In this document: positions 2,788-64,000 of the stretch, one piece after another | Layout: each line of letters starts with the position of its first letter | How positions within the stretch are numbered: position 1 is the first letter of the stretch | Source: Candidatus Onthovivens merdipullorum | Lineage (GTDB): Bacteria > Bacillota_I > Bacilli_A > RFN20 > CAG-826 | Assembly (NCBI GenBank): GCA_017694345.1 | Contig: JADIMY010000117.1 | Coordinates: 17,865-81,864, forward strand | DNA length: 64,000 bases | Reading direction: 5' to 3' | The notes under the pieces: model-generated | Databases searched by the model: none | The model's input: the letters and a program-made list of their open reading frames with translations, nothing else | Told to the model about the DNA's origin: nothing | Program-made: the position numbers and the translations under genes

Positions 2788-2923
2788 AACTAACCTCGAT
2801 TAGTAAGTATAACAAAATCTATATTTAAATTAAATAATAGTAAATTTTTTATGAATTAATACCTCACAATTTCTATAACTATATTTAGATTTAAAAATCG
2901 TTTTATTGTATAATTTTAAAGGT

Positions 2924-5076: not shown

Positions 5077-5687
5077 TGGATGAATTAAAATCTATTGTAA
5101 ATTTAACCCTTGCTTTTAGTAAATTCCCTTCAATTGGCAACAAAACTGCCGAAAGAATGGCTTACGCTCTTTTAGATATGAAAAAAGAAGATATTGATAA
5201 TTTAGTTAAATCAATAGAGACTGTTGAAACTACAATTCATACTTGTCCTATTTGTGGCTCTTTAACCGAAAAAGAAACTTGTTCAATATGTTCTAATCCA
5301 AATAGAGATCACTCGATTTGTGTAGTCGTGAGCTATCCAAAAGATGTAATAACTTTTGAAAAAATGGGAGAATTTAAAGGAATTTATCATGTTTTAGGAG
5401 GCGAAATCTCAAGTTACCATGGAGTTACTCCTAAAGATTTATCAATTGATAAATTAGTTGAGCGAATAAAAAAAGATTCTATTAAAGAAATTGTTATCGC
5501 TACTAATCCAAGTGTTGAAGGTCAAACGACAGCTTTATATTTGACTGAGACTTTAAAAGATTTAAATATAAAAATCTCAAGAATCGGCTTTGGTATTCCT
5601 ATTGGTGGACAACTAGATTATGCGGATAGTTTGACTTTAAAAAGATCTTTTGAAAATCGTAAAGAAATTAAAGAGGATAAAGAATAA
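5076..5687 (+). CDS. recR: recombination protein RecR
   Basis: It has the C4 zinc finger (CPICGSLTEKETCSIC) and a Toprim domain and is 203 aa. Confidence 0.95.
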   Translation: MDELKSIVNLTLAFSKFPSIGNKTAERMAYALLDMKKEDIDNLVKSIETVETTIHTCPICGSLTEKETCSICSNPNRDHSICVVVSYPKDVITFEKMGEFKGIYHVLGGEISSYHGVTPKDLSIDKLVERIKKDSIKEIVIATNPSVEGQTTALYLTETLKDLNIKISRIGFGIPIGGQLDYADSLTLKRSFENRKEIKEDKE

Positions 5688-6313
5688 TGTTTATAAGTGC
5701 TGAAGGTGTTGAAGGTTGTGGAAAAACAACCATATTAAAAATGATTTATGAAAAACTTCTTAAAGAAGGTTATAAAGTTTTATTAGCTAGAGAACCTGGT
5801 GGAGTAAAAATTAGTGAACAAATTAGAAATATTATATTAAATAAAGAAAATACCGATTTAGATAATCGTAGCGAAGCACTTCTATTTGCAGCCAGTCGTA
5901 GACAATTGCTCGTAGAAAAAATATATCCTGCTTTAAATAATGGTTATATTGTTTTATGCGATCGTTTTGTTGATAGTTCTTTAGCTTATCAAGGTGGTGG
6001 TAAAGGCTTAGGGGTTGAAAATGTCTTAAATATTAATTTATTCGCTACTAATAACACATTACCAAATTTAACATTATTATTTGATATTGATCCTTCTTTA
6101 GGACTGGAAAGAATTAGGGAAAATAAAAATCGAGAAGTTAATAGACTAGATTTAGAAAGACTTGATTTTTATAATAAGGTAAGAAATACTTTTTTAGATT
6201 TATCTAAAAAATATAGTAATCGCTATTATGTTTTAGATGCTTCTAAATCAATTGATGAAGTATTCAATGAAGCATATAAAAAAGTAATTGAAGTAATTAA
6301 TGGAAATAATTGA
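5687..6313 (+). CDS. tmk: thymidylate kinase
   Basis: It has the P-loop EGVEGCGKTT, a DRF motif and the LID region and is 208 aa. Confidence 0.9.
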   Translation: MFISAEGVEGCGKTTILKMIYEKLLKEGYKVLLAREPGGVKISEQIRNIILNKENTDLDNRSEALLFAASRRQLLVEKIYPALNNGYIVLCDRFVDSSLAYQGGGKGLGVENVLNINLFATNNTLPNLTLLFDIDPSLGLERIRENKNREVNRLDLERLDFYNKVRNTFLDLSKKYSNRYYVLDASKSIDEVFNEAYKKVIEVINGNN

Positions 6314-7280
6314 ATATTTAGAAAAAAACCAGCAAATCCCATATAAAATTTTTGAAAATGCCTTATTAGGGCATAAATTTTTTCACGCTTATTTACTTAG
6401 TGGAAGTCAAGGAACACCTTTACTTGATATTGCTAAATTTTTGGCTAAATCAATGCTATGTGAAAATGCTCATCCTTTTGCTTGTAACACTTGTAACACT
6501 TGTAAAAGAATAGAAGAAAATATTTATGGTGATTTAATATTAATTGATGGAAAAAAAGGTAGTATCTTAAAAGATGAGATCTCTACTTTAATCGATTCTT
6601 TTTCTTTAACAGCTAGCGAGAAAAAAGGAATTAAAATTTATATCATAAATATAGTAGAAAACATGAATGTTGAAGCAACTAATGCATTACTTAAATTTTT
6701 AGAAGAACCACCTTTAGATACTTATGCAATTCTTACTACTTTTAATAAATATCGAATACTACCAACAATCTTAAGTAGATGTGAAATAATTAATTTTTCA
6801 TTGCTAAACCAAAAATATTTAATTGATGAATCACTTAAGCTTGGCGTAGCGATTGATGATTGTGAACTTCTATCTTTCTTTTATAACGATCCATCATATA
6901 TATTAAAAATAAGTCAAGACGAAGATTATCTAATATCTAAAAATGATATTTTAGAATTATTTAAAAATATCGAAAATAAAGAAAATTTGAGATTTTTTAT
7001 TGAACATAACTTACTTCCTAAACTAAAAGGAAAGGAAACAATTCGATATTTTTATGATAATACCATCGTCTTTTTTAAAGAAGCTTTAAAATATAAATCT
7101 AATAAAACAACTATTTTAAATAGTTATGTTAATATATTAAAAGAAATAATTAATAATGTATCAAATTTAGATAGATCGATATTAATATTAATTAATTCTC
7201 GTAATGAATTAAACTTTAACTTAAATACTTCATTACTAATATTAGAAAGTTTACTCGAAACTTTTGAGGTACATAAATGA
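6300..7280 (+). CDS. holB: DNA polymerase III delta-prime subunit
   Basis: It has a DnaX-like AAA+ fold with a degenerate P-loop (HAYLLSGSQGT) and a zinc module (CNTCNTC). It follows tmk as in Bacillus. Confidence 0.75.
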   Translation: MEIIEYLEKNQQIPYKIFENALLGHKFFHAYLLSGSQGTPLLDIAKFLAKSMLCENAHPFACNTCNTCKRIEENIYGDLILIDGKKGSILKDEISTLIDSFSLTASEKKGIKIYIINIVENMNVEATNALLKFLEEPPLDTYAILTTFNKYRILPTILSRCEIINFSLLNQKYLIDESLKLGVAIDDCELLSFFYNDPSYILKISQDEDYLISKNDILELFKNIENKENLRFFIEHNLLPKLKGKETIRYFYDNTIVFFKEALKYKSNKTTILNSYVNILKEIINNVSNLDRSILILINSRNELNFNLNTSLLILESLLETFEVHK

Positions 7281-28071: not shown

Positions 28072-28099
28072 AACAACCTTGCAAAACTCAATTATTTTT
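28072..28099 (+). repeat. copy a of the ~30-bp intergenic motif
   Basis: The sequence AACAACCTTGCAAAACTCAATTATTTTT ends at the stop codon of the gene at 28098. Confidence 0.55.
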
Positions 28100-33375: not shown

Positions 33376-33465
33376 GGAGAAATACCCAAGTGGTTTAAGG
33401 GGACGGTCTCGAAAACCGTTAGGAGTGAATAGCTCGCAGGGGTTCAAATCCCCTTTTCTCCGCCA
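33376..33465 (+). tRNA. tRNA-Ser (anticodon CGA)
   Basis: It has a GGAGAAA/TTTCTCC acceptor stem, a CTCGAAA anticodon loop, a long variable arm, the TTCAAAT T-loop and an encoded CCA. Confidence 0.9.
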
Positions 33466-33537: not shown

Positions 33538-33568
33538 TTAAAAAGCCTGCAAAACTCAATTATTTTAT
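33538..33568 (+). repeat. copy b of the ~30-bp intergenic motif
   Basis: The sequence TTAAAAAGCCTGCAAAACTCAATTATTTTAT overlaps the last 3 codons and stop of the YitT-like gene. Confidence 0.6.
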
Positions 33569-34639
33569 AGGTTTTCTAAAGAATTTACCATAAACTTGAG
33601 CCATTGGGAAAACATTTATAAAAGCTTTATTATCAATTTCTTTAACTATTTTTATAACTTTTTTAACTTCACTTTTTCTAACTGAAACATGAATAACAAA
33701 TAAATCGTTTCCACTATAACCGCCTTTACCATTTATAATAGTACATCCATGAGGAATAGCAGCAATTATAGATTGAGATAAATTATAGTTAGGAGTAATT
33801 ATTTGAATTTCAAATTTCTTATTGGTTGTATTAATTTGATCAACAACAAAAGAAATAACAATCATATACATAACTGTAAATAAGAAAATAATGATTGCCG
33901 TTGCTGGTTCTACGCTTTGTAAATCTGGATTAGGAAACAATTCGGTATTTACTGGAATTACAGATAATATCGAATAAATACCAACTACAAATAAGTTAAA
34001 TAAAGCACTATATTTTCCTATTTGAACAGACTTTCTTTCGCTTATATAAAAAGCAATAATATCTGTTCCACCGGCGGTAGAATCTATTAAATAAGCTAAA
34101 GCACTAGCAATACCTGTACATGAAGCAGCAAAAATAACTCTAGCAACTGTCTCTGTCGCCATTTGAGTAGCAATTAAATTTAAAATATTATTTGGATCAG
34201 TGCTTTTAAGCAAAATACCAAATCCTGAAGCACAAGCAACATTAAGTAAAGAATAAATCGCAAATTTTTTACCTACTTTAAAAAATCCCAAGAAAAATAA
34301 AGGAACATTTACAACAAAATAAAATATCCAATACATCAAATTAAACTAAAAGTCGTTTGCAACAAAACCAGCCCCACATAATTTTAAAATAGCGACCAAA
34401 GATTGAGAGATTCCACTAGCTCCACAACTTGCTAAATGATAAATAGTTACCTCGTTAGCTACTTCAGCTGGAATTACATCAAAATTAGGTTGAATAAAAC
34501 AATTAAATCCAAAAGCGAAGATAAAACCACTTAAAATAGTGACTAATATCATCCAAGTATTATTGAGTATTGAGTTTTGAACTGGGTGATCGTAGAAGTA
34601 ATTTTTAACTTTCTTTTTTAATCTAATAAAAGCATACAT
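33560..34639 (-). pseudogene. YitT-family (DUF161+DUF2179) membrane protein interrupted by one in-frame TAG
   Basis: The ORFs at 34346..34639 and 33560..34339 are in the same frame (...VANDF-TAG-FNL-MMYWIF...). Together they give the full YitT architecture, and no RBS precedes the downstream ATG. Confidence 0.6.
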
Positions 34640-44209: not shown

Positions 44210-44241
44210 TTAAAATAGTTGAGATTTGCAAGGTTTTTTAA
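44210..44241 (-). repeat. copy g of the ~30-bp intergenic motif (reverse orientation)
   Basis: The reverse complement is TTAAAAAACCTTGCAAATCTCAACTATTTTAA. It lies 20 bp from the ZIP gene stop. Confidence 0.6.
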
Positions 44242-51655: not shown

Positions 51656-52761
51656 TTTTGTTCCTCTAACTTTTCTTTAACTTTTACTAATAAATCGGTG
51701 ATTGGCAAATGTTGTGGACAGTTTCTCTCACATTTTCTACATTTAATACAATCACTAGCCTTTCCATTAGTTTTTGCTAGGTTATTATAATACATTCTTT
51801 GATGCCAATTATCTTCGCTTTTTATTGCTTCATTATATAGAGCAAAATAATTAGGAATAGGAATGTGCTTTGGACATCCTTCAACGCAATATTTACAACT
51901 GGTACAACCTATTTCTTTATTAGAAGTTAATAACATTTGAGCTCGATTAATAATTTCTTTTTCTTCTTTATTTAACGGAACAAAGTTTTCCATATAAGAT
52001 GTGTTATCGTTTAATTGTTCTAATGTACTCATTCCACTTAAAACAACCATTATTCCTTCTAAACTTGCAGCAAATCTTATAGCCCAAGAAGCATTACTAG
52101 CTTCTTTATTAAATTTATGAAATAAAATATCAACATTTTCAGGTAAATTTACTAAATTACCACCTTTAACAGGTTCCATAACAATAACTTTTTTATTATA
52201 TTTTCTAGCTACTTCATAGCATAGTCTACTTTGAATAGCTGGTGAATCCCAATCTAGATAATTTATTTGTAATTGTACAAGCTCAAATTCAGGATGTTTT
52301 GATAAAATTTCTTCAAGTAAATCAGCTTTATCATGAAAAGAAAAGCCAAGATGCTTTATCTTTCCTTCTTTTTGCTTTTTTAAAACAAAACTAAAAGCAT
52401 CAAGTTTATTAGCAGTAACTAAAGTGTTTGTATTTAAATTGTGTAGTAAGTAATAGTCGAAATAATTAACACCAACTTTATTTAATTGCTCATTAAAGAT
52501 TCTTTCCATATCTTCTACTTTTTTAAGTTGCATTGTAGGTAGTTTACTAGCAATAGTAAAAGAATCACGAGGATATCTATTCACTAAGCATTCTTTAGCG
52601 ATACATTCACTTTTATAATTCATGTACATATAAGCTGTATCAAAATAAGTAAAACCTCTTTTAATAAATAGATCTACCATCTCATTTACTTGTTTGACAT
52701 CAATTTCTTCGCTACCTTTAAGTAAAGGTAGTCTCATTAAACCAAATCCTAATTTTTTCAT
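51652..52761 (-). CDS. aldo/keto reductase with C-terminal double 4Fe-4S ferredoxin domain
   Basis: It has an AKR TIM-barrel core plus CTSCKYCVEGCP and CIKCRKCERNCP clusters and is 369 aa. Confidence 0.8.
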   Translation of the reverse strand: MKKLGFGLMRLPLLKGSEEIDVKQVNEMVDLFIKRGFTYFDTAYMYMNYKSECIAKECLVNRYPRDSFTIASKLPTMQLKKVEDMERIFNEQLNKVGVNYFDYYLLHNLNTNTLVTANKLDAFSFVLKKQKEGKIKHLGFSFHDKADLLEEILSKHPEFELVQLQINYLDWDSPAIQSRLCYEVARKYNKKVIVMEPVKGGNLVNLPENVDILFHKFNKEASNASWAIRFAASLEGIMVVLSGMSTLEQLNDNTSYMENFVPLNKEEKEIINRAQMLLTSNKEIGCTSCKYCVEGCPKHIPIPNYFALYNEAIKSEDNWHQRMYYNNLAKTNGKASDCIKCRKCERNCPQHLPITDLLVKVKEKLEEQK

Positions 52762-52777
52762 ATTTGCCCCTTTATCT

Positions 52778-52808
52778 TAAAAATAATTGAGTTTTGCTTG
52801 GTTTTTAA
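52778..52808 (-). repeat. copy c of the ~30-bp motif, reverse orientation
   Basis: The reverse complement is TTAAAAACCAAGCAAAACTCAATTATTTTTA. Its TTA is the stop codon of the gene at 52805. Confidence 0.6.
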
Positions 52809-53284
52809 TCAAATAAACCTTTATATTCACTTTTTAATTCTTTAATTAAATTCTCTTTTTGAAGATCATTTAATTTATCATCTTCATTAGCATATTTATT
52901 TGAAGTTAGTTCGTGATAAATAAGAAAAATAACATTGATAAGTGTTATTAAACAAATAAAGGAAAGATTAAAAATAGAAAATAAATTAAATAAATGTTCG
53001 TTAGTAAAATTAAAAACACAACTAAAAACAATTAATATCAATAATATGAATGAACACATAATATCAAAAACAAAAACTTTACTTAAATATTTTATATGAA
53101 TGCAAGTATTGATATTATTATCTTTTTTATATAGTTTATTTAATCTACTTTCTTTCTTTAATAAGAATTTTCTCAAATAAACTAAAGAAACTTTGCTACC
53201 TTTAGGTAAACCACTATTAATAAAATATTTATATGTTAACCATAAGAAGAATATAATAAATAAAATCCAAATTAAATTAATCAT
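52805..53284 (-). CDS. small 4-TM membrane protein, hypothetical
   Basis: The 159-aa ORF has its 3' 135 nt duplicated at 59310..59444. Confidence 0.5.
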   Translation of the reverse strand: MINLIWILFIIFFLWLTYKYFINSGLPKGSKVSLVYLRKFLLKKESRLNKLYKKDNNINTCIHIKYLSKVFVFDIMCSFILLILIVFSCVFNFTNEHLFNLFSIFNLSFICLITLINVIFLIYHELTSNKYANEDDKLNDLQKENLIKELKSEYKGLFD

Positions 53285-53372
53285 AAAATAATTTTACAAT
53301 ATCTTTTTAAAGGAGTTAAGAAAATAGATTTTGCTTGTATCAATTATAAGGTGTTTTTCTTATAATTTAATT

Positions 53373-54566
53373 ATGAAAGAAATATTAGGAAATGTTATTT
53401 ATGGTCAAAGCGGAGGACCTACATCAATAATAAATACCAGTGCTTACTACTTATTTAAAGAATGTTTTAATAAATTAGAAAATAAAATAAAAATTTATGC
53501 AATGAAATATGGTATTGAAGGCCTATTAGAAGAAAATATTATTGAAGTTAAAGATAATGATAATTTAAATAAACTTTTAGTCTCACCTGGCGCTTACTTT
53601 GGTAGTAATCGATATAAACTAAAAGATGACGATCTTAATGTTTTTAATAAAATATTAGAAACATTTAAAAAATATAACATTAGATATTTCTTTTATAATG
53701 GTGGAAATGATTCCATGGATACCATTAATAAAATTTCAACCTATTTTAAAAAGGTTAATTACGAATGTTATTGTATTGGAATAAATAAAACTATCGATAA
53801 CGATCTTTTACATACTGATTTTTCTTTAGGCTATGCTAGTGCTTCAAAATTTATAATTAACACTATATTAGAAATTTATGCAGATGATAAAAGTTATAAG
53901 GTAGGTAGAATAAACATTATCGAGACAATGGGAAGAAACGCAGGTTGGCTTGCTGCTAGTTCTAAGTTATGTTCTTTAAAGGGAGATATTGTTGATTTTA
54001 TCTTAATTCCTGAAAAATATGTTGATTTAGAAGACTTTTTAATAAAAATCAGCGAAGTTTACAAAAGAAAGAAACACTGTATTATCTGTGTAAGTGAAGG
54101 AATTAAAAATCTTAAAGGTGAATTTATTTTTGAAAACGATTTAATGCTAGATAAATTTGGTCATAATCAACTTGGTGGTGTTTCTATTAAACTTTGTGAA
54201 CTTATTAAAAATAGATTTAATATAAAAACTAGATATTATGAACTTAGTTTATTACAAAGAGCTAATTCAATGTATTTATCTAAAATAGAGGAGCAAGTAG
54301 CCAAAGATTTATCAATTTACGCTCTTAATGCTGCTTTAAATAAAGAGAATAACAAAATGGTTGTAATTAATAGATTACCTAATACTAATAGAAATAATTA
54401 TAAATATGATTTTTCATTAGTTCCTATTAAAGAGGTATCGAATAAAGAAAGATATCTCGATGAAAAGTTTATTTTAAAAAATAAATACGATGTCGATGAA
54501 AGTTTTATCGATTATTTATTACCACTAGTTGATGGAGAAGGTGGTTTGCTTGATATCTTAAAGTAA
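53373..54566 (+). CDS. 6-phosphofructokinase, probably pyrophosphate-dependent type
   Basis: It has the PFK fold. GGNDS replaces the GGDGS of ATP-type enzymes (Asp at the Gly104-equivalent position). The start MKEILGNVIYGQSGGPTS is typical of the PPi-PFK group. Confidence 0.75.
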   Translation: MKEILGNVIYGQSGGPTSIINTSAYYLFKECFNKLENKIKIYAMKYGIEGLLEENIIEVKDNDNLNKLLVSPGAYFGSNRYKLKDDDLNVFNKILETFKKYNIRYFFYNGGNDSMDTINKISTYFKKVNYECYCIGINKTIDNDLLHTDFSLGYASASKFIINTILEIYADDKSYKVGRINIIETMGRNAGWLAASSKLCSLKGDIVDFILIPEKYVDLEDFLIKISEVYKRKKHCIICVSEGIKNLKGEFIFENDLMLDKFGHNQLGGVSIKLCELIKNRFNIKTRYYELSLLQRANSMYLSKIEEQVAKDLSIYALNAALNKENNKMVVINRLPNTNRNNYKYDFSLVPIKEVSNKERYLDEKFILKNKYDVDESFIDYLLPLVDGEGGLLDILK

Positions 54567-55562
54567 AGTTATCCCTTTTTCTTTATAAAAATTTATTGTT
54601 TCTTCTTTCCAGATTGAAGATTGCACTTCTCCAATATGTAATTTTTTAAGCATAAACATACAAATACGAGATTGACCGATACCTCCTCCTAAAGTAAAAG
54701 GTAATCCTTCATTTAATATTAACTTATGAAATTTATAATTTAATATCTCTTCTTTATTCAAAAATTTAGCTTGTTTAATTAAAGAAGGACTATCTACTCT
54801 AATTCCCATACTTGATAGCTCAAGAGCGTCATCTAAAATAGGATTATAAACATAAATATCACCATTTAATTTCCAATCATCATAATCAGGTGCACGATGA
54901 TCTTGAGGAATACCATCGCTTAAAGGATAGCCAATTCCTATAACAAAACAGGCTTTTACTTCTTTAATAAATGTATCTACTCTTTCTTTAGGTGATAAAT
55001 CAGGATATTTTTTAAGCAATTCTTCGCTTGTAATAAAAGTTATTTTATTAGGTAATATCTTTTCGATATTAAATTTTTTAAAAGCAAAATCTTCAGTCTT
55101 CTTTATAACACTATAAATTCTTTTAACATAATCTTTTAAAGTTTTGATTGTCCTTTCTTTTTTGTTAATAATGAGTTCATAGTCCCATTGATCAACATAA
55201 ATAGAATGATAATTATCTCTTATTTCATCTTTTCTAATCGCATTCATGTCGGTATAGATACCTTCATGAACCTCTAAGCCATATTTAGCAATATTTAATC
55301 TTTTCCATTTAGCTAAAGAGTGAACTATTTCTATATTATTTTCAAAATCATTAATCTTAAAAGAAACCGGAACTTCAACACCATTAAGATCATCATTGAT
55401 TCCTGTTTTACTTAGAACAAATAAAGGAGCGGTTACTCTTAACAAATTAAGTTTTTTAGCTAAATGAGATTCAAAATATTCCCTTATTTTTTTAATAGCT
55501 ATTTCGTTTTCTTTTAAATTCAGATTAGATTTATAACCTTCCTTATATCGATTTATTTCCAT
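54558..55562 (-). CDS. asnA: aspartate--ammonia ligase (asparagine synthetase A)
   Basis: It aligns with E. coli AsnA at the VHSLAKWKR, SSMGIRVD and GGGIGQSR blocks. AAGGAG lies 7 nt upstream. Confidence 0.9.
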   Translation of the reverse strand: MEINRYKEGYKSNLNLKENEIAIKKIREYFESHLAKKLNLLRVTAPLFVLSKTGINDDLNGVEVPVSFKINDFENNIEIVHSLAKWKRLNIAKYGLEVHEGIYTDMNAIRKDEIRDNYHSIYVDQWDYELIINKKERTIKTLKDYVKRIYSVIKKTEDFAFKKFNIEKILPNKITFITSEELLKKYPDLSPKERVDTFIKEVKACFVIGIGYPLSDGIPQDHRAPDYDDWKLNGDIYVYNPILDDALELSSMGIRVDSPSLIKQAKFLNKEEILNYKFHKLILNEGLPFTLGGGIGQSRICMFMLKKLHIGEVQSSIWKEETINFYKEKGITLL

Positions 55563-55589
55563 AATTTACTCCTTCTTAATTCATTTAAA

Positions 55590-55620
55590 AAGCCTTTAAT
55601 TCGAATAAAATTAAAGGCTT
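55590..55620. terminator. rho-independent terminator
   Basis: The sequence AAGCCTTTAATT-cgaataa-AATTAAAGGCTT forms a perfect 12-bp stem followed by ATTTTATT. Confidence 0.55.
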
Positions 55621-55626
55621 ATTTTA

Positions 55627-55658
55627 TTAAAAACCTTCTAAAACTCAACTATTTATTT
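55627..55658 (+). repeat. copy d of the ~30-bp motif
   Basis: The sequence TTAAAAACCTTCTAAAACTCAACTATTTATTT overlaps the stop of the gene at 55653. Confidence 0.55.
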
Positions 55659-57728
55659 AATTTTTTTGCAAACATCCCAGACACCCCAAATAACAGTTCT
55701 TAGATTTCCAACCTTTAAGGCATCTCCAATTATATGAACTTTTCTTTTCTTTTTAAAAGTATTAAGTGGGGTATATCCAATTGAAGAAATAACACTATCA
55801 ACAGCTACTTTTTCTTCTTTTCCATCTTTATTTATATATATGATATAACTATCATTATATCCTTTAACTTTACTTTCTAAATGAACTTCAACCTTTTTAT
55901 ACTTAAAATAATCCCTTAAATACGAGGAATTTGCTAAACAAACACTATTAGAAACAATTAAGTCATTTAAAGCTTCAAAGATAATTGGAGTTTTACCTTT
56001 TCTTTCTAAATCATAGGCAATCTCACAACCAGTTAATCCTCCACCAATAATAGCGACTCTATCTCCAACTGTTTCACCACTTAAATAGTTTACAGCATCA
56101 ATGAATTTCTCATTTCCAGGAATTCTAAGTTTTTTAGCTTTTGCTCCAATTGCTACAATTATTTCATCAAAAGATTTAAGTTCATCAAGAGATTTAATTT
56201 CGGTATTAAATTTAACTTCAATATTTAATTTATTAATTTGTCTAATAAACCAAGTAATTAACATTTTATCTTTTTCTTTAAAATCAAAATTACTGGCTGG
56301 AATAAATACACCACCAAGTTTATCGCTTTTTTCAAAGATTGTAACTTTATGTCCTTTCAAAGTTAAAACTCTAGCAGCTTCCATTCCACCAATTCCACCA
56401 CCAATAACAGCAATCTTTTTTGGATGTTTAGTCTTTTTGATATCATATTTATGACCAACCATTGTTTGAGGGTTTAATGCACATCTAGACATATGAATAG
56501 CATCACTCATTGGAGAAGCGTTAGCGCTTCCTTTATAGTGACTCATATTAAAACAGCCATTATGGCAACAAATACAAGGCATAATATCTTCTAAATCATC
56601 ATTCATTACCTTAGTAACCCATTTACCATCAACTAAAAATTGTCTAGCAAAGCCAGCTGCATCTATTTCGTTATTTTTAATAGCTTCACTAGCTTTATCT
56701 AAAGTCATTCTCCCAGCACAAACAACAGGGATATTTACATATTTTTTAATATGAGCAACATCTTCTAAATTACAGTTATTTGGCATATACGCTGGTGGGT
56801 GAGCCCAATACCATGCATCATAAGTCCCATTATCACAATTGAGCATATCATACCCGGCTTCTTCTAGATATTTAACAGCTTTTTCACTTTCTATCATATC
56901 ACGTCCGATTTCTTTATAGTCTTCGCCAGGCATAGCACCACTACCAAAATCTTTAGTTTTACTTAAAACACTATATCTTAAAGAGACAGGATAGTCTTTC
57001 CCACAAACTTTTTTAATTTCTTTAACAACTTCAGTTGCAAATCTATATCTATTTTCAAAACTTCCGCCATAATCATCTGTTCTTTTATTAGTATATCCAT
57101 AAGTAAATTGATCTAATAAATATCCTTCATGAACAGCGTGAATTTCGACTCCATCTACACCAGCTTCTTTGCATAACTTAGCAGTTTTAGCAAAAGCTTC
57201 AATCATCTCTTTAATCTCTTTAATTGTAAGTGCTCTACAATTAACATCTTCTTTCCATCTTAAAGGTAAAACACTTGGTGAAGCTGTTAAGTAACTAGGA
57301 TTGACAATTGGACTAACAATTTTTCCAATAAGTTTATGCTTTAATAACATCACTAAAGGACTAGTAACAGCAAAACTTCTACCAAATCCAGCAGTTAATT
57401 GAACAAATAATTTAGCACCAGTCTTATGAATCTCAACCATATAATCTTTAAGTTCTCTAAACATCTTTTTATTTTTATATAGCCAGCGATTCATTATCGT
57501 ATCTCTTAAAGGAGCAATACCAGGAATAATAAGTCCAACATTATTACGAGCCTTTTCTAAGAAAAATTCAGCAGCAACTTTATCAAAATGATTAGGCTCC
57601 ATCCAACCAAATAAACTAGTTCCACCCATTGGACACATTACTATACGATTTTTTATTTCAACATTTCCTATTTTCCAAGGCGTAAATAGCGATTTATATT
57701 CTTCTTTCATAAGTTCCCCTTTTTTCAA
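55653..57728 (-). CDS. Old Yellow Enzyme-family NADH:flavin oxidoreductase fused to an FAD/NAD(P)-binding reductase domain
   Basis: The 691-aa ORF has an OYE TIM barrel with a Cys cluster (CICCHNGC) followed by a GGGIGG Rossmann domain. Confidence 0.8.
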   Translation of the reverse strand: MKKGELMKEEYKSLFTPWKIGNVEIKNRIVMCPMGGTSLFGWMEPNHFDKVAAEFFLEKARNNVGLIIPGIAPLRDTIMNRWLYKNKKMFRELKDYMVEIHKTGAKLFVQLTAGFGRSFAVTSPLVMLLKHKLIGKIVSPIVNPSYLTASPSVLPLRWKEDVNCRALTIKEIKEMIEAFAKTAKLCKEAGVDGVEIHAVHEGYLLDQFTYGYTNKRTDDYGGSFENRYRFATEVVKEIKKVCGKDYPVSLRYSVLSKTKDFGSGAMPGEDYKEIGRDMIESEKAVKYLEEAGYDMLNCDNGTYDAWYWAHPPAYMPNNCNLEDVAHIKKYVNIPVVCAGRMTLDKASEAIKNNEIDAAGFARQFLVDGKWVTKVMNDDLEDIMPCICCHNGCFNMSHYKGSANASPMSDAIHMSRCALNPQTMVGHKYDIKKTKHPKKIAVIGGGIGGMEAARVLTLKGHKVTIFEKSDKLGGVFIPASNFDFKEKDKMLITWFIRQINKLNIEVKFNTEIKSLDELKSFDEIIVAIGAKAKKLRIPGNEKFIDAVNYLSGETVGDRVAIIGGGLTGCEIAYDLERKGKTPIIFEALNDLIVSNSVCLANSSYLRDYFKYKKVEVHLESKVKGYNDSYIIYINKDGKEEKVAVDSVISSIGYTPLNTFKKKRKVHIIGDALKVGNLRTVIWGVWDVCKKIK

Positions 57729-57808
57729 TTATTTTAAACGATTGATAGCAATACTTCACTAAAAAATTAGTGTTGAGTATAAAAATAAAAATAAATAGAA
57801 TTATAAAC

Positions 57809-58414
57809 ATGCCTTATCTAACGATTATTTTAATTAGTCTATCACTTGCTATGGATGCTCTAACTGTAGCAATAATTGACGGACTTACAATGAAAAACTT
57901 AACTAAACCAAAAATGATTTTTATTTGTTTGATGTTTAGTTTATTTCAAGGTTTATTTCCTTTTGCTGCTCATTTCATAGGCACTACTTTTATGTCTTAC
58001 ATCGAAGATTATGATCATTGGATTAGCTTTGCTTTACTTTTACTAATTGGTGGAAAAATGATTTTCGATGGAATAAAAGAAGTTATTAATAAGAAAAAAG
58101 GTGTTGTTGAAGAAAATAATGCTAATACTTTTACATATAGAAAAATATTTATTCAAGCAATTGCTACTGCAATCGATGCTTTTGCAATCGGAATAACTTT
58201 AGAAAGTAGTACTCAACCTATTAATATTTATTACGATGTTTTATTTATTATTGGAATAACTTTTTTATGTTGCTTAATTGGTATTTTCTTAGGCAAACAA
58301 ATTACAAAAGTTATTAAAGGACACTATGAAATTGGTGATTTTATTGGTGGAATCGTTTTAATTTTAATTGGAGTAAAAATTGTTTTATCTCATTTAGGAT
58401 ATTTACCATTTTAA
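57809..58414 (+). CDS. mntP: MntP-family (DUF204) putative manganese efflux pump
   Basis: It has a duplicated 3-TM module with DA motifs (SLAMDALTVA; ATAIDAFAIG). I chose the ATG at 57809. Confidence 0.65.
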   Translation: MPYLTIILISLSLAMDALTVAIIDGLTMKNLTKPKMIFICLMFSLFQGLFPFAAHFIGTTFMSYIEDYDHWISFALLLLIGGKMIFDGIKEVINKKKGVVEENNANTFTYRKIFIQAIATAIDAFAIGITLESSTQPINIYYDVLFIIGITFLCCLIGIFLGKQITKVIKGHYEIGDFIGGIVLILIGVKIVLSHLGYLPF

Positions 58415-58445
58415 ATATATTATTTAAGGAGGATGTTTATTTTAT

Positions 58446-58874
58446 ATGAAAAAATTTATTATACCTTCAATTATTTATGCAATACTTGGTGCTTTAGGTG
58501 GAGTATTTTATAGAGAATTTACCAAAGCGATAGGATTTACTAACGAAACCTCTTTAAGCGTAGTTCATACACATTATTTAATATTAGGTATGATTATGTT
58601 TTTAATACTTTTGCTATTTGAAAAATCATTTTCTTTTAGTGATAAGAAAACAAATATTACATTAATCTTTTATCATATTGGATTAAATATAACCGGTGTA
58701 ATGCTATTTGTTAGAGGAATTTTAGAAGTACTAAATACTAATTTATCAAGTGGAATAAATGCAATGATTTCAGGAATAGCTGGAATAGGACACTTAATTC
58801 TAGGTGTTTCTTTAGTTTTAATTTTAATTTTCTTAGCAATAAAACTTTTTAAAAACAGTAAAGCAAGTAACTAA
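58446..58874 (+). CDS. small 4-TM membrane protein, hypothetical
   Basis: The 142-aa ORF has AAGGAGG upstream. Confidence 0.5.
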   Translation: MKKFIIPSIIYAILGALGGVFYREFTKAIGFTNETSLSVVHTHYLILGMIMFLILLLFEKSFSFSDKKTNITLIFYHIGLNITGVMLFVRGILEVLNTNLSSGINAMISGIAGIGHLILGVSLVLILIFLAIKLFKNSKASN

Positions 58875-58911
58875 AATTAATAAAAATAATTAGGATTTTG
58901 TCGTTATCTAA

Positions 58912-59294
58912 AGCAATTTATCCTGTTTTGCACAGGTTGCTTCATAAATATTATGTCGTGTTTTGAAGTTTTTGTAAGCTTCATAAATTATTTTTTTCAC
59001 AAATACATATTTTCTAGTTTTTCACGAATGTTTTCTTCGCTTATTTTTTTGTTTTTAAAAAATAAATCACGTATAACATTTGCAAGATCATTTATCGAAG
59101 AATAATCAATCATTAAATAATATTCATAAACTAGAGAACAAAGATGCTCAAAAATTTAATCATTTCTCTCTTTTACATACTCTCTAATTAAAATATCCAC
59201 TTCATTTGCTATAAATAGTTTAGTTATATTTAATTCTTGTTTCTTTGCAACATTTAGTAATTCTAAATATTTCTTTTTCTATTATTCCTTTCAT
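58912..59294 (-). pseudogene. degraded ORF remnant with frameshifts
   Basis: About 125 codons of helical-protein-like sequence (MKGIIEKE / KKYLELLNVAKKQELNITKLFIANEVDILIREYVKERND / IFEHLCSLVYEYYLMIDYSSINDLANVIRDLFFKNKKISEENIREKLENMYL / KKIIYEAYKNFKTRHNIYEATCAKQDKLL) are spread over three frames. The frame breaks fall at A/T homopolymers. Confidence 0.3.
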
Positions 59295-59309
59295 TGTTGC
59301 TTTTACACA

Positions 59310-59444
59310 ATCAATGTTATTTTTCTTATTTATCACGAACTAACTTCAAATAAATATGCTAACGAAGACGATAAATTAAATGATCTTCAAAAAGAGAATT
59401 TAATTAAAGAATTAAAAAGTGAATATAAAGGTTTATTTGATTAA
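59310..59444 (+). pseudogene. orphan 3' fragment duplicating the last 44 codons of gene 52805..53284
   Basis: There are 133/135 nt identical and both differences are synonymous. The encoded peptide INVIFLIYHELTSNKYANEDDKLNDLQKENLIKELKSEYKGLFD is identical, with no start or N-terminal part. Confidence 0.6.
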
Positions 59445-59471
59445 AAAGCCTGCAAAACTAAAATATTTTTT
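59441..59471 (+). repeat. copy e of the ~30-bp motif
   Basis: The sequence TTAAAAAGCCTGCAAAACTAAAATATTTTTT spans from the stop of the orphan fragment to the stop of the DUF2075 gene. Confidence 0.6.
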
Positions 59472-61330
59472 TAATTTTTGTTTAATTTTTCTTTTAAATA
59501 ATTTCTTAATGCTTCATCTTCACAATAAATGTAGCAACCTTTAATTCCTCTAGTTAAAAGTACTTTGTAAGTTCTTCTAATTAGTTTATCAGCTTCTTCA
59601 TTTGAAGTACTTTTTAATCTAATTCCACTTGTCTTATCATCTTTTGATATTGCATTACGGTTTGTTTGTACATGTCCATCTTTATAATAGAGATCTTTAC
59701 CAATAATAATGCCGACATAATCAAATTCCATTCCTTGACATGTATGAATACAACCAACTTCTTCAAAAGAATTAGGATTTACTGCCCAATGGTCATCGTT
59801 AGCTAAATTCCATTTTGCTTTAAAACCATTTGGAAGTATGATATCCCATTCGCCTTTTTTATTTTTTACATTCCAATCATAACAATAACCTGCAATCATT
59901 CTAGTTTTGTTATTTATTTTATTTAATTCTCTTAATTCATCTCTCATTTTGATAGGATCATCAAAAACCTTAACTTTAAGATTATTAAATTCAAAATTTG
60001 TATTAGCTGTTTGCTTAATTTCTAATAAATTATTTAAAAAAGAAATATAACCATCACTTCCATCACATCTAAATTGAGAAGTTAATTCATAAGGTTTATG
60101 AATAATTGCATTTTCATTTTTAGCATACATAATAATTGAATTTACATCATATTTATCATTAATAGTAATTCTTTGGTCATCATCAACAAAAAATATTGAA
60201 ACTTTACTTGCTTTAATAGCGTCTTCAAGCATATCATTACCTAAATATCTATAAGGTTTCTTTTGCATACGATGTGCTTCATCAAAAATACCTACATCAA
60301 GTCCGTTATATATCGTATTAGGTAAACACCATGGAGATTGAATTGCTTTTTGAAGGTTAACCATCTTTTTAGCATTACCTTTTGCTAATAAGTTAGCATA
60401 ACACTTTCTTGGAGCCATATTTTTTGTTATATAAGAGGTATTTAGTTTTAAATCTATAATACATCTAGCTAATATATTAATTGCTAAAACTGATTTCCCA
60501 GTTCCTGGCCCCCCAGTAATTATAAGAACATGCTTCCTAGTGTCATTTTGAGATTCTTTGATTGCTTTCATAATTTTATCATAAGCAACTACTTGTTCAT
60601 CAATCATATGAAATTCTTCATTTCCACAAAGCATTGAATCTAAGGCATCTTGAAGAGATTTAGTAGGTTTTAATCTTCCTTCTTCAATTTTATAAAGTAA
60701 AGAACCATCATTTGCTTTTAACTTTATATAATTTTTAACAAAGTTTCTTAATTTTAAAACATCACTTTGTAAAAATACTGGCGCTTCTTCTATCCATTCA
60801 TGATATAAATTATCTTCGATTATAGGACGATATTCTTCACTTAAATTGTGCAAATATGCACATGGTTTTAATGTCTTATTATTAATTGAAACTGAATCAT
60901 TAGAATAATCTAATATTAATTGTTTATAAGAATAAGCTTGATAAGAAGGATGAGCAACAGGTTCATGACTTCTTAAATCAGACATTATTGAATGATCACA
61001 ATTATCATCAACTTTATTAACTCTAGCCCATTGTTTTAATTCAATAATAACGACATGGTCTTCTGTATTATTATTGCCCATAATCATAAAATCAACACGT
61101 TTAGAAGTTTGAGGAATATTATATTCAATAGCAACTTGACATTCGTTATCAAAATAAGAATCATCTAAAACATCTTTCATAAAGTGTAAAGAATTATTCC
61201 GTGAATTTATTTCACTGGCTGATCCTCCACTTAAACCTTTCTCTCTAAGTGTTTTTAAAAGAATGCTTTGCATCGTATTAAAAGTAACATCAGTTCTAAA
61301 ATCTTTTAATGACTTATTATAAATAATCAT
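59471..61330 (-). CDS. DUF2075-type protein: N-terminal PD-(D/E)xK-like nuclease motif + P-loop SF1-like helicase/ATPase domain
   Basis: The 619-aa ORF has the nuclease-like motif VDFMIMG...IIELKQW. It also has Walker A (ITGGPGTGKS), Walker B (IFDEAH) and further helicase-like motifs. Confidence 0.7.
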   Translation of the reverse strand: MIIYNKSLKDFRTDVTFNTMQSILLKTLREKGLSGGSASEINSRNNSLHFMKDVLDDSYFDNECQVAIEYNIPQTSKRVDFMIMGNNNTEDHVVIIELKQWARVNKVDDNCDHSIMSDLRSHEPVAHPSYQAYSYKQLILDYSNDSVSINNKTLKPCAYLHNLSEEYRPIIEDNLYHEWIEEAPVFLQSDVLKLRNFVKNYIKLKANDGSLLYKIEEGRLKPTKSLQDALDSMLCGNEEFHMIDEQVVAYDKIMKAIKESQNDTRKHVLIITGGPGTGKSVLAINILARCIIDLKLNTSYITKNMAPRKCYANLLAKGNAKKMVNLQKAIQSPWCLPNTIYNGLDVGIFDEAHRMQKKPYRYLGNDMLEDAIKASKVSIFFVDDDQRITINDKYDVNSIIMYAKNENAIIHKPYELTSQFRCDGSDGYISFLNNLLEIKQTANTNFEFNNLKVKVFDDPIKMRDELRELNKINNKTRMIAGYCYDWNVKNKKGEWDIILPNGFKAKWNLANDDHWAVNPNSFEEVGCIHTCQGMEFDYVGIIIGKDLYYKDGHVQTNRNAISKDDKTSGIRLKSTSNEEADKLIRRTYKVLLTRGIKGCYIYCEDEALRNYLKEKLNKN

Positions 61331-61647
61331 AATTTAGTATATTTATTTGCTTTTCCTTTACACTTCTCTATTGGATATTTTAATTCGTTTTTATCTAATT
61401 TATTATTAATAATTTCATCTTCATCTAAATTAAGAACATCTAACATATTTTGACAATAAATTAATACATCCGCTAACTCATCTTTAACTTCATTTACATC
61501 AAAATCATTTTCATTCCATTGAAAACATTCTAATAATTCATTAGCCTCAATACTAATTGATTTTGCTAAATTTGCAGGATTATGAAATTTATCCCGATCT
61601 CTTTCTTTGGAAAATTTTCTAATTCTATCTTTTGAATTTTTGTTCAT
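61327..61647 (-). CDS. MazG-like nucleotide pyrophosphohydrolase (small all-alpha NTP-PPase)
   Basis: The 106-aa ORF has the pattern SIEANELLECFQW...ELADVLIYCQNMLDVLNLDEDEII typical of the YpjD/MazG-like family. It overlaps the DUF2075 gene by 4 nt. Confidence 0.6.
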   Translation of the reverse strand: MNKNSKDRIRKFSKERDRDKFHNPANLAKSISIEANELLECFQWNENDFDVNEVKDELADVLIYCQNMLDVLNLDEDEIINNKLDKNELKYPIEKCKGKANKYTKL

Positions 61648-61785
61648 ATGAAAATTGTAATCTTTTTAGGCAAAAAAATCATTAATTGAGTTTCAGTTTA
61701 CATTTTCAAACAAAATTAAGTAAAAAGTTATTATTGATTTTTACATTAAAAATTAAATTATTTTTCAAAAAAGTCATGTTTTTTT

Positions 61786-61817
61786 ATAAAAAGCTTGCAA
61801 AACTCAACTATTATTTT
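61786..61817 (+). repeat. copy f of the ~30-bp motif
   Basis: The sequence TATAAAAAGCTTGCAAAACTCAACTATTATTTT has a partial inverted copy (AATTGAGTTTCAG) at 61688..61702. Confidence 0.55.
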
Positions 61818-62064
61818 CTATAAATCTAATGGTGCTTTTATAACAAATTTATATATCAATTTAATTTAAGAAATATTAGCAAATCCGATTTCAGTATTTT
61901 CTCTTTCATCTTTTATCACAAAAAAATAGTGAAATAAACAAGTTTTATCACATTTTATGAGCGAATAAATTAACAATAGTCACATTATATGAGCCAATCA
62001 TAAAATTAAAAATATGTTTTTAATTAAGCAAGTTCTATAAACTTTCATATATCTAATTAATATT

Positions 62065-64000
62065 TTATTCTTCAAATAAACTCATTTGTTCAAATGCTTC
62101 ATCTAAATTGTGTATTTTCCCAATTGTAAATTCAAATAAACCAATAATTGATTCATAATCTTTAACTGCACTATTAGGTATTCTAATTAGTTTAATATTA
62201 TATTTAGCACAGATTTCTTCTTTTTTTCTATCTCTAAGAGCAGTTTCTTTACTACCAACATGCTCACCACCATCAATTTCAAAAACAACTATTGTTTTAT
62301 ATTGACGATTAAACAGGCCTCCACTAACTTGAACTATAACATCAAATTCTTTCATACCTATTTCTTTATGGTCAAAATAATTTACATTTTTAATAGCTTT
62401 TTCTACAAGGACGTTTCTTTCAATTCTAAATTTAGAACCTCGACGATTAAAATAAGGTTTAATAGTTTCAAAAAACTCCCTTTCGCTTTTTGAATCATTT
62501 GAAAAATCATAATTAATAACTGCTTCACTTTGAGTAACACTAATTTCTCCGTTACTAAAAACATAATCTGAAAGAGCTTTAATATCATTAGTGTCGTTTT
62601 TACTTAAGGCATCTATTGCTTCTTTATCTCCAACAAAAATAAATCTATTTTTTGCTCTAGTAACCGCAACATTAATTAATTCATAATTATTTTTAATCCA
62701 ACCCATTGTTCTTTTTGCAGTTTTTAAAGATAAAGCTGAAGACATAATAATTACTGATTTTTCTGAACCTTGTAAGGTATGAACTGTACCGGCTTTAACA
62801 TCTTCAATCCCAAATTGTTCTAAATATTCATTAATTAAAGCTGCTTGATTAACAAATGGGGTTATTATTCCAACATCCTTATAATTATTTTCTTTAATAA
62901 TTTTTGCTATTTCATAAGCCTCTTCATTATAGGAATTTCTTAATTTAGCCTTAGAAGTATTTTGAACATTTACATAAACTAAATCACCTAAATTTTCATT
63001 AAGTAACTTAAGTTGTTTCTCATAAAATCTTTGATTAACAAAACTTGCAATTCTTTTACCGCATCGATAATGGTATCTTAATAAGATACATTTCGAATTA
63101 TTATCTTTCCTTAACATTAAAGAAAGAATTGAATTTCTAACATAGTTATATTCTTTACTAATGTTATATTTATTCATTAAATCAAGGTTAACATCATTTT
63201 CAATTACCGTAACTGGTTGAAGCTGATTTGTATCTCCTACTAATAATAAATTTTCTCCTCTAACAATAGGAATTAATGAAAATGCAATATTGCATTGTCC
63301 TGCTTCATCCATTATTACTAAATCAAAATGATTAGTTGCGCTTCCTAGCTTTTCTGAAGATAAATTAGTAGATAAAATAATAGGAAAAATAGACAAAAAA
63401 CGTCTTAAATTCAAGTTATTTTTTAAAAATTTATTAAATTTAGAAACTGCAATATTCTCATCTTCAAGTACAATAATTTCCCTTAATTCCTTAAAAGTTG
63501 GACCTAATAGTTTTTTATATCTTAAAATTGATGAGTAATATAAAAAGTTATGAAAATCTAAATCATCAAAGACTGATTTTGTACATTTAAATATATCTTT
63601 ATCAGTAATATTTTTACTTGTGTTTAGTTTATATTTATAAAGTTTAAGTTCAGATTCTAATTTCTCATTAATTTGATTAATCGATATAAAATCTTTTAAT
63701 TTTCCAAGAGTATTGATACGCTCTTCTAAATCTAATTTATTTTCATATTCTATTAGTAACTTTTTAAGTTCATTAAAGTTTGATAATGATTTATTTTTAT
63801 TATCTTCAATTAGATTATCATATGTCTTTACATCTTGATTTTTTGATATATAAGTAAGTAATTCTTTTAACTTTTTAATCGTGTCAAGCATTTCAATATT
63901 ATTTCCAATACGAATCATTGGAAAAATAATTTCTTGACTACTATTTTTAAATTTAAAAGACTCAATCATCTTTTTATAAATATCAATGACAGGATGATTG
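62065..64000 (-). CDS. SF1B (Upf1-like) helicase with C-terminal DUF559/Vsr-like endonuclease domain, N-terminus outside the window
   Basis: It has helicase motifs DEAGQ, GDTNQLQP, a Q-motif region, TVHTLQGSEK and VAVTRAK. The C-terminal ~120 aa are DUF559-like (VVFEIDGGEH). The reading frame stays open to position 64000 and no Walker A lies in the window. Confidence 0.7.
   Translation of the reverse strand, partial: NHPVIDIYKKMIESFKFKNSSQEIIFPMIRIGNNIEMLDTIKKLKELLTYISKNQDVKTYDNLIEDNKNKSLSNFNELKKLLIEYENKLDLEERINTLGKLKDFISINQINEKLESELKLYKYKLNTSKNITDKDIFKCTKSVFDDLDFHNFLYYSSILRYKKLLGPTFKELREIIVLEDENIAVSKFNKFLKNNLNLRRFLSIFPIILSTNLSSEKLGSATNHFDLVIMDEAGQCNIAFSLIPIVRGENLLLVGDTNQLQPVTVIENDVNLDLMNKYNISKEYNYVRNSILSLMLRKDNNSKCILLRYHYRCGKRIASFVNQRFYEKQLKLLNENLGDLVYVNVQNTSKAKLRNSYNEEAYEIAKIIKENNYKDVGIITPFVNQAALINEYLEQFGIEDVKAGTVHTLQGSEKSVIIMSSALSLKTAKRTMGWIKNNYELINVAVTRAKNRFIFVGDKEAIDALSKNDTNDIKALSDYVFSNGEISVTQSEAVINYDFSNDSKSEREFFETIKPYFNRRGSKFRIERNVLVEKAIKNVNYFDHKEIGMKEFDVIVQVSGGLFNRQYKTIVVFEIDGGEHVGSKETALRDRKKEEICAKYNIKLIRIPNSAVKDYESIIGLFEFTIGKIHNLDEAFEQMSLFEE

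Follow-up and report, generated by a model that had tools for sequence, protein, structure and literature searches.

A defence-island scar in Candidatus Onthovivens merdipullorum, probably patched with a templated copy of a nearby gene end

Two kinds of described system stand closest to the locus reported here. In the turnover of defence islands, occupancy varies among strains between conserved genes, the cargo consists of recognised or candidate defence genes, and a truncated earlier system may persist at the island edge. In templated insertion (synthesis-dependent microhomology-mediated end joining, microhomology-mediated break-induced replication, or fork stalling and template switching), a short inverted insert is copied from a near locus at a deletion junction; such insertion and template switching are best documented in eukaryotes and Escherichia coli. 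Here we describe positions 58875-59472 of a 64,000-nucleotide (nt) stretch of DNA from Candidatus Onthovivens merdipullorum (contig JADIMY010000117.1), which is referred to as the window. A first-pass annotation, made from the letters alone, had read this segment as a recombination scar left by insertion or replacement on the flank of a DUF2075/MazG module, and our comparisons bear this out, given that sister strains without the island diverge from the window after 58898. The segment is probably a scar within a defence island, where an old module was deleted and the join was patched by a templated copy of the end of a gene located 6.4 kb away. The scar is without present function, a non-functional remnant of cargo replacement, which is of a known kind and is here resolved to the nucleotide. 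A search for promoter and terminator signals in 58700-59700 gave no excess over shuffled sequences.

The empty site in related genomes placed the island edge precisely. From 52000 to 58898 the window is collinear, at 98.6% identity, with four sister strains lacking the island (L016-L018 and L020), and homology ends at 58898/58899; everything from 58899 rightward is therefore island DNA. In the island-free strains, the stop codon of DUF2871 lies 34 nt from that of a tRNA_U5-meth_tr-type methyltransferase gene, and the break falls 10 nt after the methyltransferase stop. The core-genome spacer at 58875-58898 (unstranded) follows the DUF2871 stop (58874), and its final bases are common to the window and the island-free strains. 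Sister strains L019 and L023 contain another version of the island, with different cargo. Judged from these alignments, the species carries a strain-variable island between the methyltransferase gene and DUF2871. Its defence genes, as recognised by PADLOC matches, are clustered and polymorphic for presence or absence between conserved flanks, the site being empty in some strains and occupied in others.

As the first-pass annotation had stated, no intact gene is present in 58875-59472: the segment is without an open reading frame (ORF) of more than 50 amino acids (aa), and the frame of the orphan fragment within it is covered neither by an ORF of its own nor by a longer intact one. Both remnants named at that stage, a decayed gene and an orphan 3' end, are real. 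The orphan (59310-59444, plus strand) comprises the last 44 codons and the TAA stop of a gene for a 159-aa predicted membrane protein, and it has no start codon and no upstream ORF. The intact gene (52805-53284, minus strand) occurs in single copy, always between the PFK and aldo-keto reductase genes. A repeat search and alignment yielded an inverted repeat of 161 nt, 96% complementary, with arms at 52779-52939 and 59310-59470 that lie 6370 nt apart, which confirms the duplicated gene end. The template arm (52779-52939, minus strand) consists of the 3' end of the intact gene together with a downstream copy, motif c (52779-52804), of a dispersed 25-nt motif. The coding differences between fragment and intact gene are located at 59363 and 59369 (AAT>AAC and GAT>GAC), both of them synonymous, exactly the two changes in 135 nt originally counted. 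The 26 nt past the stop contain five differences, a higher density than in the coding part (5/26 versus 2/135; Fisher p=0.0013). BLAST extended the homology of gene and fragment to 225 nt; this was rejected as over-extension in AT-rich sequence, the base-level alignment placing the junction at 59310-59319.

Differences that are only synonymous had been taken to mean that the fragment once belonged to a selected paralogue. On that explanation, a full second copy of the 159-aa gene was maintained under purifying selection until its 5' two-thirds were lost on insertion or replacement of the adjoining region, which contains a decayed 92-aa gene. The fragment does retain its frame and stop, its coding differences from the intact gene are indeed only synonymous, and a larger inverted duplication that was truncated later is formally conceivable. 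The sister strains, however, give the direction of change. At the first synonymous site the fragment state (AAC) was found in all 11 sister-strain loci and at the second (GAC) in eight of the 11, and at three of the five post-stop motif sites the sister strains match the fragment base or differ at one position. Given that the sister strains carry the fragment bases, the two synonymous and three motif differences arose in the intact gene of this strain, whose template arm shows five derived changes relative to those strains. The coding part of the fragment is the allele of L016, L017, L020, and L021, with zero private changes; the only two private changes of the fragment (59460 and 59463) are both within the motif. 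No second copy of the gene was detected in any strain examined (11 related loci), and the window's contig has just the two arms. The protein is also lineage-restricted, being represented by its own 90% cluster alone and, among 1.84 billion representative sequences, by one relative at 48% identity. Because the fragment state is the single-copy sister allele and the gene is lineage-restricted and single-copy everywhere, no selected paralogue is indicated. In addition, the limits of the copy fall exactly on a 10-nt microhomology at one side and on the motif at the other, as a short templated patch predicts. We consider a decayed paralogue distinctly improbable, and the case illustrates that synonymous-only differences between a gene and a fragment need polarisation by an outgroup before selection is invoked. 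On the alleles compared, the fragment is a copy of the end of the resident gene, made before the lineages of the window and of the diverged relative L022 split.

The join is not a plain end-to-end ligation: it contains this copy as an insert, whose two junctions were resolved by alignment. On the left, a three-way alignment showed the match to the 159-aa gene starting at 59310 and the match to an intact module of the older type, in L004, reaching 59319. The shared stretch (59310-59319, unstranded) is a 10-nt microhomology, ATCAATGTTA, common to the 159-aa gene and, as its reverse complement TAACATTGAT, to the tail of a transferase gene in the module. On the right lies motif copy e (59445-59470, plus strand). 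This copy had been described as a motif joined on to the fragment; it is instead the downstream motif of the 159-aa gene itself, copied together with the gene end and overlapping the native motif of DUF2075. In L027, a human-gut relative with a DUF2075 module 96% identical to that of the window, a motif copy follows the DUF2075 stop directly and is succeeded by an unrelated NERD gene. A 17-nt core, AAAAATAATTGAGTTTT, is common to the window, L027, and the ancestral form of motif c, and at 59454-59470 it constitutes the right junction: left of the core the window tracks L027, and right of it the window tracks the 159-aa gene. The earlier statement that motif e differs markedly from motif c holds in this strain but not generally, three of the five differences being derived in copy c.

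The insert is thus flanked by 17 nt of homology and 10 nt of microhomology to a template that lies 6.4 kb away in inverted orientation, its gene being intact and conserved (ratio of nonsynonymous to synonymous polymorphism approximately 0.2-0.4, from very few changes). In these respects, namely an inverted insert from a near locus at a deletion junction, bordering homologies, and an intact template, the scar resembles described templated insertions. It differs in that the right-hand "microhomology" is supplied by a motif dispersed through the genome, not by a chance match, and in that the mechanism is here read from the product.

The order of events and a templated-copy mechanism are most likely as follows. 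The DUF2871-proximal end of the island would earlier have been occupied by ORF6N (PDC-S05), helix-turn-helix (HTH)/hexapeptide transferase, and 92-aa genes, followed by a non-coding element that we designate E. The present cargo would have come to abut this module, with deletion of ORF6N and of the transferase gene except for 14 codons, and the 92-aa gene, stripped of its operon, would have decayed through a 1-nt deletion at its start and one nonsense codon. A break or stalled fork beside the motif that natively follows DUF2075 may have allowed the broken end to pair with the homologous copy downstream of the 159-aa gene, over at least 17 identical nt. About 135 nt of the gene end would then have been copied, leaving the template gene unchanged, and the new strand would have re-annealed with the second broken end, in the tail of the transferase gene, through the 10-nt ATCAATGTTA. 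In the simplest history, a single repair or replication event would account for the product, as a synthesis-dependent templated insertion mediated by microhomology or, what amounts to the same, a template switch during replication. Under such a mechanism, the dispersed 25-nt intergenic motif can serve as recombination homology. The scar would represent a well-resolved case of defence-island turnover, and of ordinary genome turnover, in a gut Bacillus that is AT-rich and uncultured: an earlier anti-phage module was worn away from one side, the last of its genes decayed, and the join was patched from a near gene at short homologies.

The older module was recognised from the decayed gene. Approximately 125 codons on the minus strand had been attributed to one gene frameshifted over three frames. 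A homologue search recovered a 92-aa family and no such three-frame gene; the codons belong to a 92-codon pseudogene, the tail of a neighbouring gene, and a non-coding element. The pseudogene (58997-59275, minus strand) lies in one frame, with its stop at 58997-58999, and corresponds to a predicted five-helix protein that is the third gene of an ORF6N/HTH-hexapeptide-transferase/92-aa module. Its repaired translation had 73 homologues, nearly all of exactly 92 aa, at 54-93% identity, and matches to the 92-aa family extended across the 92 codons at 84-93% identity (E=1.5e-47 to 2.7e-44). The start position (59273-59275) reads AAG, the ATG having been lost through a 1-nt deletion of T (AAAAATGAAATAT > AAAAAGAAATAT) after which the ATGA gene overlap reads AGA in the window; codon 40 has changed from AAA to TAA, giving a premature stop at 59156-59158; and the nearly invariant Cys69 of the family is replaced by Arg. 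Because of the lost start and overlap, the stop at codon 40, and the replaced cysteine, 58997-59275 is by its sequence a pseudogene of the 92-aa family and not a working member.

The first of the three frames (MKGIIEKE...) is the C-terminal tail of the transferase gene. In the window, this HTH_3 and hexapeptide-repeat transferase gene is reduced to its last 14 or so codons (IDCVKATMKGIIEK; 59272-59319, minus strand), as aligned with L004, L010, and L019, and the ORF6N gene of the module is absent. The tail stands in a different frame from the pseudogene because the two genes overlap by ATGA in intact loci. The third frame is non-coding DNA past the conserved stop (58899-58987), and public proteins that extend into this DNA read TGA as Trp or use differing frames. 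Genetic code 4 was rejected as a source of the apparent frameshifts: the window (26.5% G+C) reads well under table 11, with which coding coverage is near-complete as it stands, and the internal stop codon is TAA rather than TGA. Read-through of TGA does occur in some public gene calls for 92-aa homologues (P0001 and P0010).

Intact modules were found in 11 loci of other gut or rumen Bacilli, with genes for ORF6N (314-320 aa), the HTH_3 plus Hexapep transferase (290 aa), and the 92-aa protein in that order. The window matches the module from 59319 down to 58948, and a second L004 copy matches down to 58899; a BLAST extension of this homology to 59345 was again rejected as over-extension through AT-rich DNA, with the base-level junction at 59310-59319. 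Among PADLOC candidates, the ORF6N protein matches PDC-S05 (E=1.5e-97); on E. coli B, a representative of that candidate has been reported to lower the plating of T7, T5, and T4 (bioRxiv 10.1101/2024.09.26.614923). The module's first gene thus resembles PDC-S05 as catalogued, a single-gene candidate of the ORF6N/RhuM type. The difference is that every copy in these gut Bacilli is followed, in overlapping frames, by the HTH_3-hexapeptide transferase and the 92-aa protein, which suggests that ORF6N, transferase, and 92-aa genes form a three-gene unit.

Searches of Pfam and NCBIfam with the repaired pseudogene yielded nothing significant, and a profile search of the PDB with the 92-aa family returned only AcrIF14, at an insignificant E=0.08. 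A structure model of the family obtained with AlphaFold (AF2) has five helices and a predicted local distance difference test score of 92, and Foldseek found no match to it in the PDB at E<1. This confidently modelled protein without a known fold relative, the three-gene context of PDC-S05, and the element E that brackets defence cargo are by-products of the analysis, and E and the three-gene module are parts deserving separate attention. In three metagenome proteins (P0071-P0073), the N-terminal domain of ORF6N is fused to the C-terminal half of the 92-aa protein, the junction lying between ...LKGE and YEYYLMIDYSS..., which points to further recombination within the putative module in other genomes. 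No sign of a large non-coding RNA or transfer RNA (tRNA)-like gene was seen in a stretch of 700 nt, richer in GC, that precedes ORF6N in L005 (z=0.3; no tRNA).

Sequencing or assembly error was weighed against these lesions. The contig was assembled from a metagenome, and repeats can cause mis-joins; an erroneous frameshift and stop, or a chimeric join at a repeat, would then account for the segment. Independent assemblies argue strongly against this. L003 (sample ERZ27234715) is identical to the window except for two substitutions, both away from the lesions, and reads straight across 59310-59470. L022 (sample ERZ24773537), which comes from a separate study and is approximately 1.1% diverged overall, has the same scar, junctions, and lesions. 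Given that they recur in these separate assemblies, the lesions are not sequencing errors. A third assembly, L002 (sample ERZ8896685), stops at window position 59144, short of both pseudogene lesions, and L001, an 86-kb ENA contig with 100% identity over 52446-64000, may be the window's own contig; the encoded proteins are those of a chicken-gut metagenome-assembled genome, Candidatus Onthovivens merdipullorum (Bacilli). L019 and L023, moreover, hold a differently decayed version of the same remnant, and an artefact appears scarcely credible.

That second version also bears on the age of the module. At the same edge, L019 and L023 contain a 94%-identical remnant of the module in which 225 nt of the transferase gene are kept, the 92-aa start is changed from ATG to ACG with the ORF still open, DUF4886 cargo lies upstream, and DUF2871 is missing. 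Because this remnant is differently truncated and stands beside other cargo, the alignments indicate that the module remnant is older than the present cargo and was truncated independently, from the 5' side, in two lineages.

Several observations weigh against a patched deletion of the old module. None of the fetched loci represents the pre-deletion state of this lineage, with a full module beside DUF2075, and the deleted content was reconstructed from other genera. The window's contig ends inside the island, beside an HTH gene, so that the far boundary lies beyond the available DNA. The private changes of motif e at 59460 and 59463 fall inside the presumed crossover stretch, where error-prone synthesis or a different donor motif could have introduced them. 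The template arm differs from that of L022 at 7 of 161 positions (4.3%), compared with 1.1% across the surrounding 11.6 kb, and this excess of changes in 52779-52939 may mark a small imported or converted patch. Finally, a two-step history would give the same product, as would an import that brought in the fragment along with DUF2075 from a donor strain arranged differently. Three adjacent motif bases (GCCTG>CCAAG) are among the seven differences from L022 in the template arm.

Such an import would proceed from a related donor in which the DUF2075 cargo was convergent to the 159-aa gene, the 3' end of the donor gene having joined the module at the microhomology. The idea has the merit of needing just one illegitimate junction. 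The DUF2075 module is clearly mobile, being 96% identical in the other context of L027 and 74-85% identical in metagenome-assembled genomes (MAGs) assigned to several phyla; and given that the 159-aa gene is genus-restricted, the donor would be a close relative, which fits the common allele of the fragment. Against this, the 159-aa gene was followed by the aldo-keto reductase gene in 11 of 11 related loci and never by DUF2075, none of 80 DUF2075 loci held sequence of the 159-aa gene, and a join at the level of the motif would still be required in the donor. We therefore regard an imported junction, formed by homology-facilitated illegitimate recombination, as unlikely, and a templated copy of the resident gene end as the probable origin of the insert.

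The inverted arms raise two further comparisons. Inverted repeats of 161 nt with 96% identity are able to support RecA-dependent inversion, and by length and identity the arms could act as a switch that flips the intervening 6.4-kb segment. A flip would rebuild the same 159-aa gene and alter no obvious expression unit, however; all assemblies show one orientation, and no invertase is encoded nearby. A functional switch of this kind is extremely improbable. That a gene 3' end recurs as an orphan where foreign DNA begins also recalls the attL/attR duplications of islands that target tRNA or tmRNA genes. In the present case, by contrast, the arms are inverted, lie 6.4 kb apart, and enclose the core genes PFK, AsnA, oxidoreductase, MntP, and DUF2871. 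Duplication of an att site was ruled out, as the arms do not flank the island as direct repeats and no integrase is present at its edge.

The cargo now in place begins with the DUF2075 gene (59471-61330, minus strand), which Pfam and PADLOC identify as a Schlafen-group-3 helicase gene of AbiO/Nhi/PDC-S41-like type and whose stop abuts motif e; it is preceded by a MazG-like gene (61327-61647). Over window positions 59471-63969 and, on the window's own contig past the window end (L107), positions 736-6410, the cargo encodes three ThsB-like TIR proteins, PDC-M50A, the MazG-like protein, and the DUF2075 protein, and also a 1029-aa superfamily 1 (SF1) helicase resembling MkoA/MkoC (Mokosh-like), which is complete when the contig is read past the window. 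The island thus resembles others undergoing turnover in its strain-variable occupancy (empty in strains of the L016 type, and with cargo in L019 and L023 different from that of the window), in its recognised or candidate defence genes (ThsB-like, PDC-M50A, MkoA/C-like, AbiO/Nhi/PDC-S41-like DUF2075, and PDC-S05), and in the truncated earlier system at its edge. It is unlike them in that the available island DNA contains no integrase or transposase and in that its edge is a non-coding element of approximately 230 nt with a nucleotide-precise end; we know of no such conserved edge element among the described features of defence hot spots. No integrase or recombinase was found in 50-64 kb of the window or in L107, and a large serine recombinase was encountered only at an unrelated locus, L005.

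Homologues of DUF2075 at 74-85% identity occur in MAGs labelled Bacilli, Erysipelotrichaceae, Spirochaetales, Bacteroidales, Elusimicrobiaceae, and Sphaerochaetaceae (L027-L106, 80 loci from GTDB genomes), reflecting either transfer of the module across phyla or contamination of bins. Element E, the three-gene module, and the methyltransferase/DUF2871 locus were found in none of these 80 loci. In L046, L064, and L029, the MazG-like gene lies downstream of DUF2075, not upstream.

Element E is represented in the window by its 3' portion of about 89 nt, of the type that we call the A-arm (58899-58987, minus strand), and it ends exactly with ...TTTAGATAACGACA at 58899, which is the island boundary. 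Full copies are approximately 230 nt long and conserved, and they always end with ...TTTAGATAACGACA. Beyond this end the DNA is unrelated in at least 14 contexts, including L019 (twice), L004, L107, and L110-L118; in nine metagenome contigs of the Joint Genome Institute, the end of E is followed by restriction-modification, Fic, PDC-S01-type, or helicase/AAA cargo. Copies were located at approximately 385-529 of L107, at 1353-1445 and 4328-4420 of L019, and at 5289-5377, 6975-7063, and 8450-8538 of L004, as well as in L110-L118. The L107 copy is a second one in direct orientation at the far side of the present cargo, and the same pattern of cargo between direct copies of E was apparent in L019, L116, and L004, some tandem copies being 267-288 nt apart. 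In L004 (GCA_051872425.1), the intact three-gene module occupies 3156-5279.

In L004 and L005, a second arm type (the B-arm) and a 60-nt repeat starting with TGTAGT form inverted repeats of approximately 45 nt, TGTAGT... and ...GACAATGACA. The 60-nt repeat, as the inverted counterpart of the B-arm, lies at 2109-2168, 3008-3067, and 5383-5442 of L004 (versus B-arm positions 5330-5377 and 7016-7063) and at 2106-2168 of L005. L004 also has subterminal TTAGACAAT repeats at unit ends, and abutting copies of the 60-nt repeat and B-arm form an imperfect palindrome of about 130 nt (single-stranded DNA fold, z=-5.3). One unit of 4.1 kb, 99% identical between the two loci, follows the methyltransferase gene in L004 and a large serine recombinase gene in L005, the switch point lying inside the 60-nt repeat. 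Islands start 10-11 nt after the stop of an orthologous tRNA_U5-meth_tr-type methyltransferase gene (49% aa identity) in two distant Bacilli, as judged from the empty site at 4375-4388 of L016 and from 2095-2109 of L004, where the start is 11 nt past the stop. These starts suggest a targeted insertion site, with the short intergenic spacers leaving room for coincidence.

Together, these features suggest that E-bounded units may be site-specific mobile units, which constitutes a lead. It is possible, if doubtful, that E is the functional end of mobile units that carry mainly defence cargo and make up an undescribed family in Bacilli of the gut and rumen, their right end being retained for mobilisation; this idea derives from the fact that three independent truncations (the window, L019, and the third L004 copy) keep the right end. 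If so, the scar would not be random debris: the end of the 92-aa gene and E would have been kept repeatedly while upstream cargo was replaced, the end being needed for mobilisation. No recombinase and no target duplication were found near E units, a search of the window's contig for an inverted left partner of E gave a best score under the shuffled-query null, and E had no match in IMG/VR viral contigs, plasmids (PLSDB), or phage records.

The units were compared with Tn7-like elements and integron arrays. They resemble these in insertion 10-11 nt past a methyltransferase stop, in that each cargo unit ends in a related element in direct orientation, and in unit ends reading TGTAGT... and ...GACA, that is, TGT...ACA, as in Tn7-like ends. 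Unlike Tn7-like elements, they are accompanied by no tnsABC or tniQ in the available DNA, in which contigs end inside islands, and their flanks do not match 5-bp duplications; unlike integron arrays, they show no intI and no attC R''/R' consensus (RYYYAAC...GTTRRRY). By eye, one B-arm contains GTTAGAC, the A-arms lack it, and no inverse core was apparent. Folding of a single copy of E gave only z=-3.1. A structured RNA was rejected: the two strands had energy z-scores of -0.08 and -1.0, and the small hairpin of the window copy lacks compensatory changes in other copies, as inspected by eye.

The dispersed motif, AAAAAGCYTGCAAAACTCAAYTATT, has seven copies in the window, with 0 expected: 28072-28096, 33540-33564, 55629-55653, 59443-59467, and 61788-61812 on the plus strand, and 44214-44238 and 52780-52804 on the minus strand. 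Both orientations are represented, and a copy typically stands between A- and T-runs within 0-25 nt of a stop codon. Copies are kept at orthologous sites in L016 and L019, and L027 has two of its own. It had no Rfam match; a terminator was rejected, as no hairpin is present, and a sigma-70 promoter was rejected since the spacing to -10-like hexamers is inconsistent among copies by eye. An Rfam search of the window, L004 and L019, and one full-length copy of E returned, within the window, only a tRNA gene (33376-33462, 59.8 bits), with nothing at the scar, motif, or E. A motif copy lies 78 nt downstream of this tRNA gene and overlaps the stop of a convergent gene (33560-34339). The 22 nt ahead of the copy at 55629-55653 resemble the final codons of the 159-aa gene (TAAAGGYTTATTTKATTAAAAA), which may mean that at some sites the repeat reaches farther 5' than the 25-nt core. 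At 55585-55665, a perfect 12-bp hairpin (AAGCCTTTAATT...AATTAAAGGCTT) adjoins the same copy.

Core genes neighbouring the scar encode a GFO/IDH/MocA oxidoreductase, aldo-keto reductase, the 159-aa membrane protein, PFK, AsnA, an Oxidored_FMN/Pyr_redox enzyme, MntP, and DUF2871, and to its right Pfam identified DUF2075 (Schlafen-group-3 helicase), MazG-like, and large SF1 helicase genes. In the island-free L016 (4412-4843), L017, L018, and L020, the orthologue of the DUF2871 gene (58446-58874 in the window) has AAG, not ATG, at its start position, and for this reason it is called there as a protein of 87-92 aa instead of 142 aa. In some lineages this gene, which adjoins the hot spot, seems to be undergoing decay.

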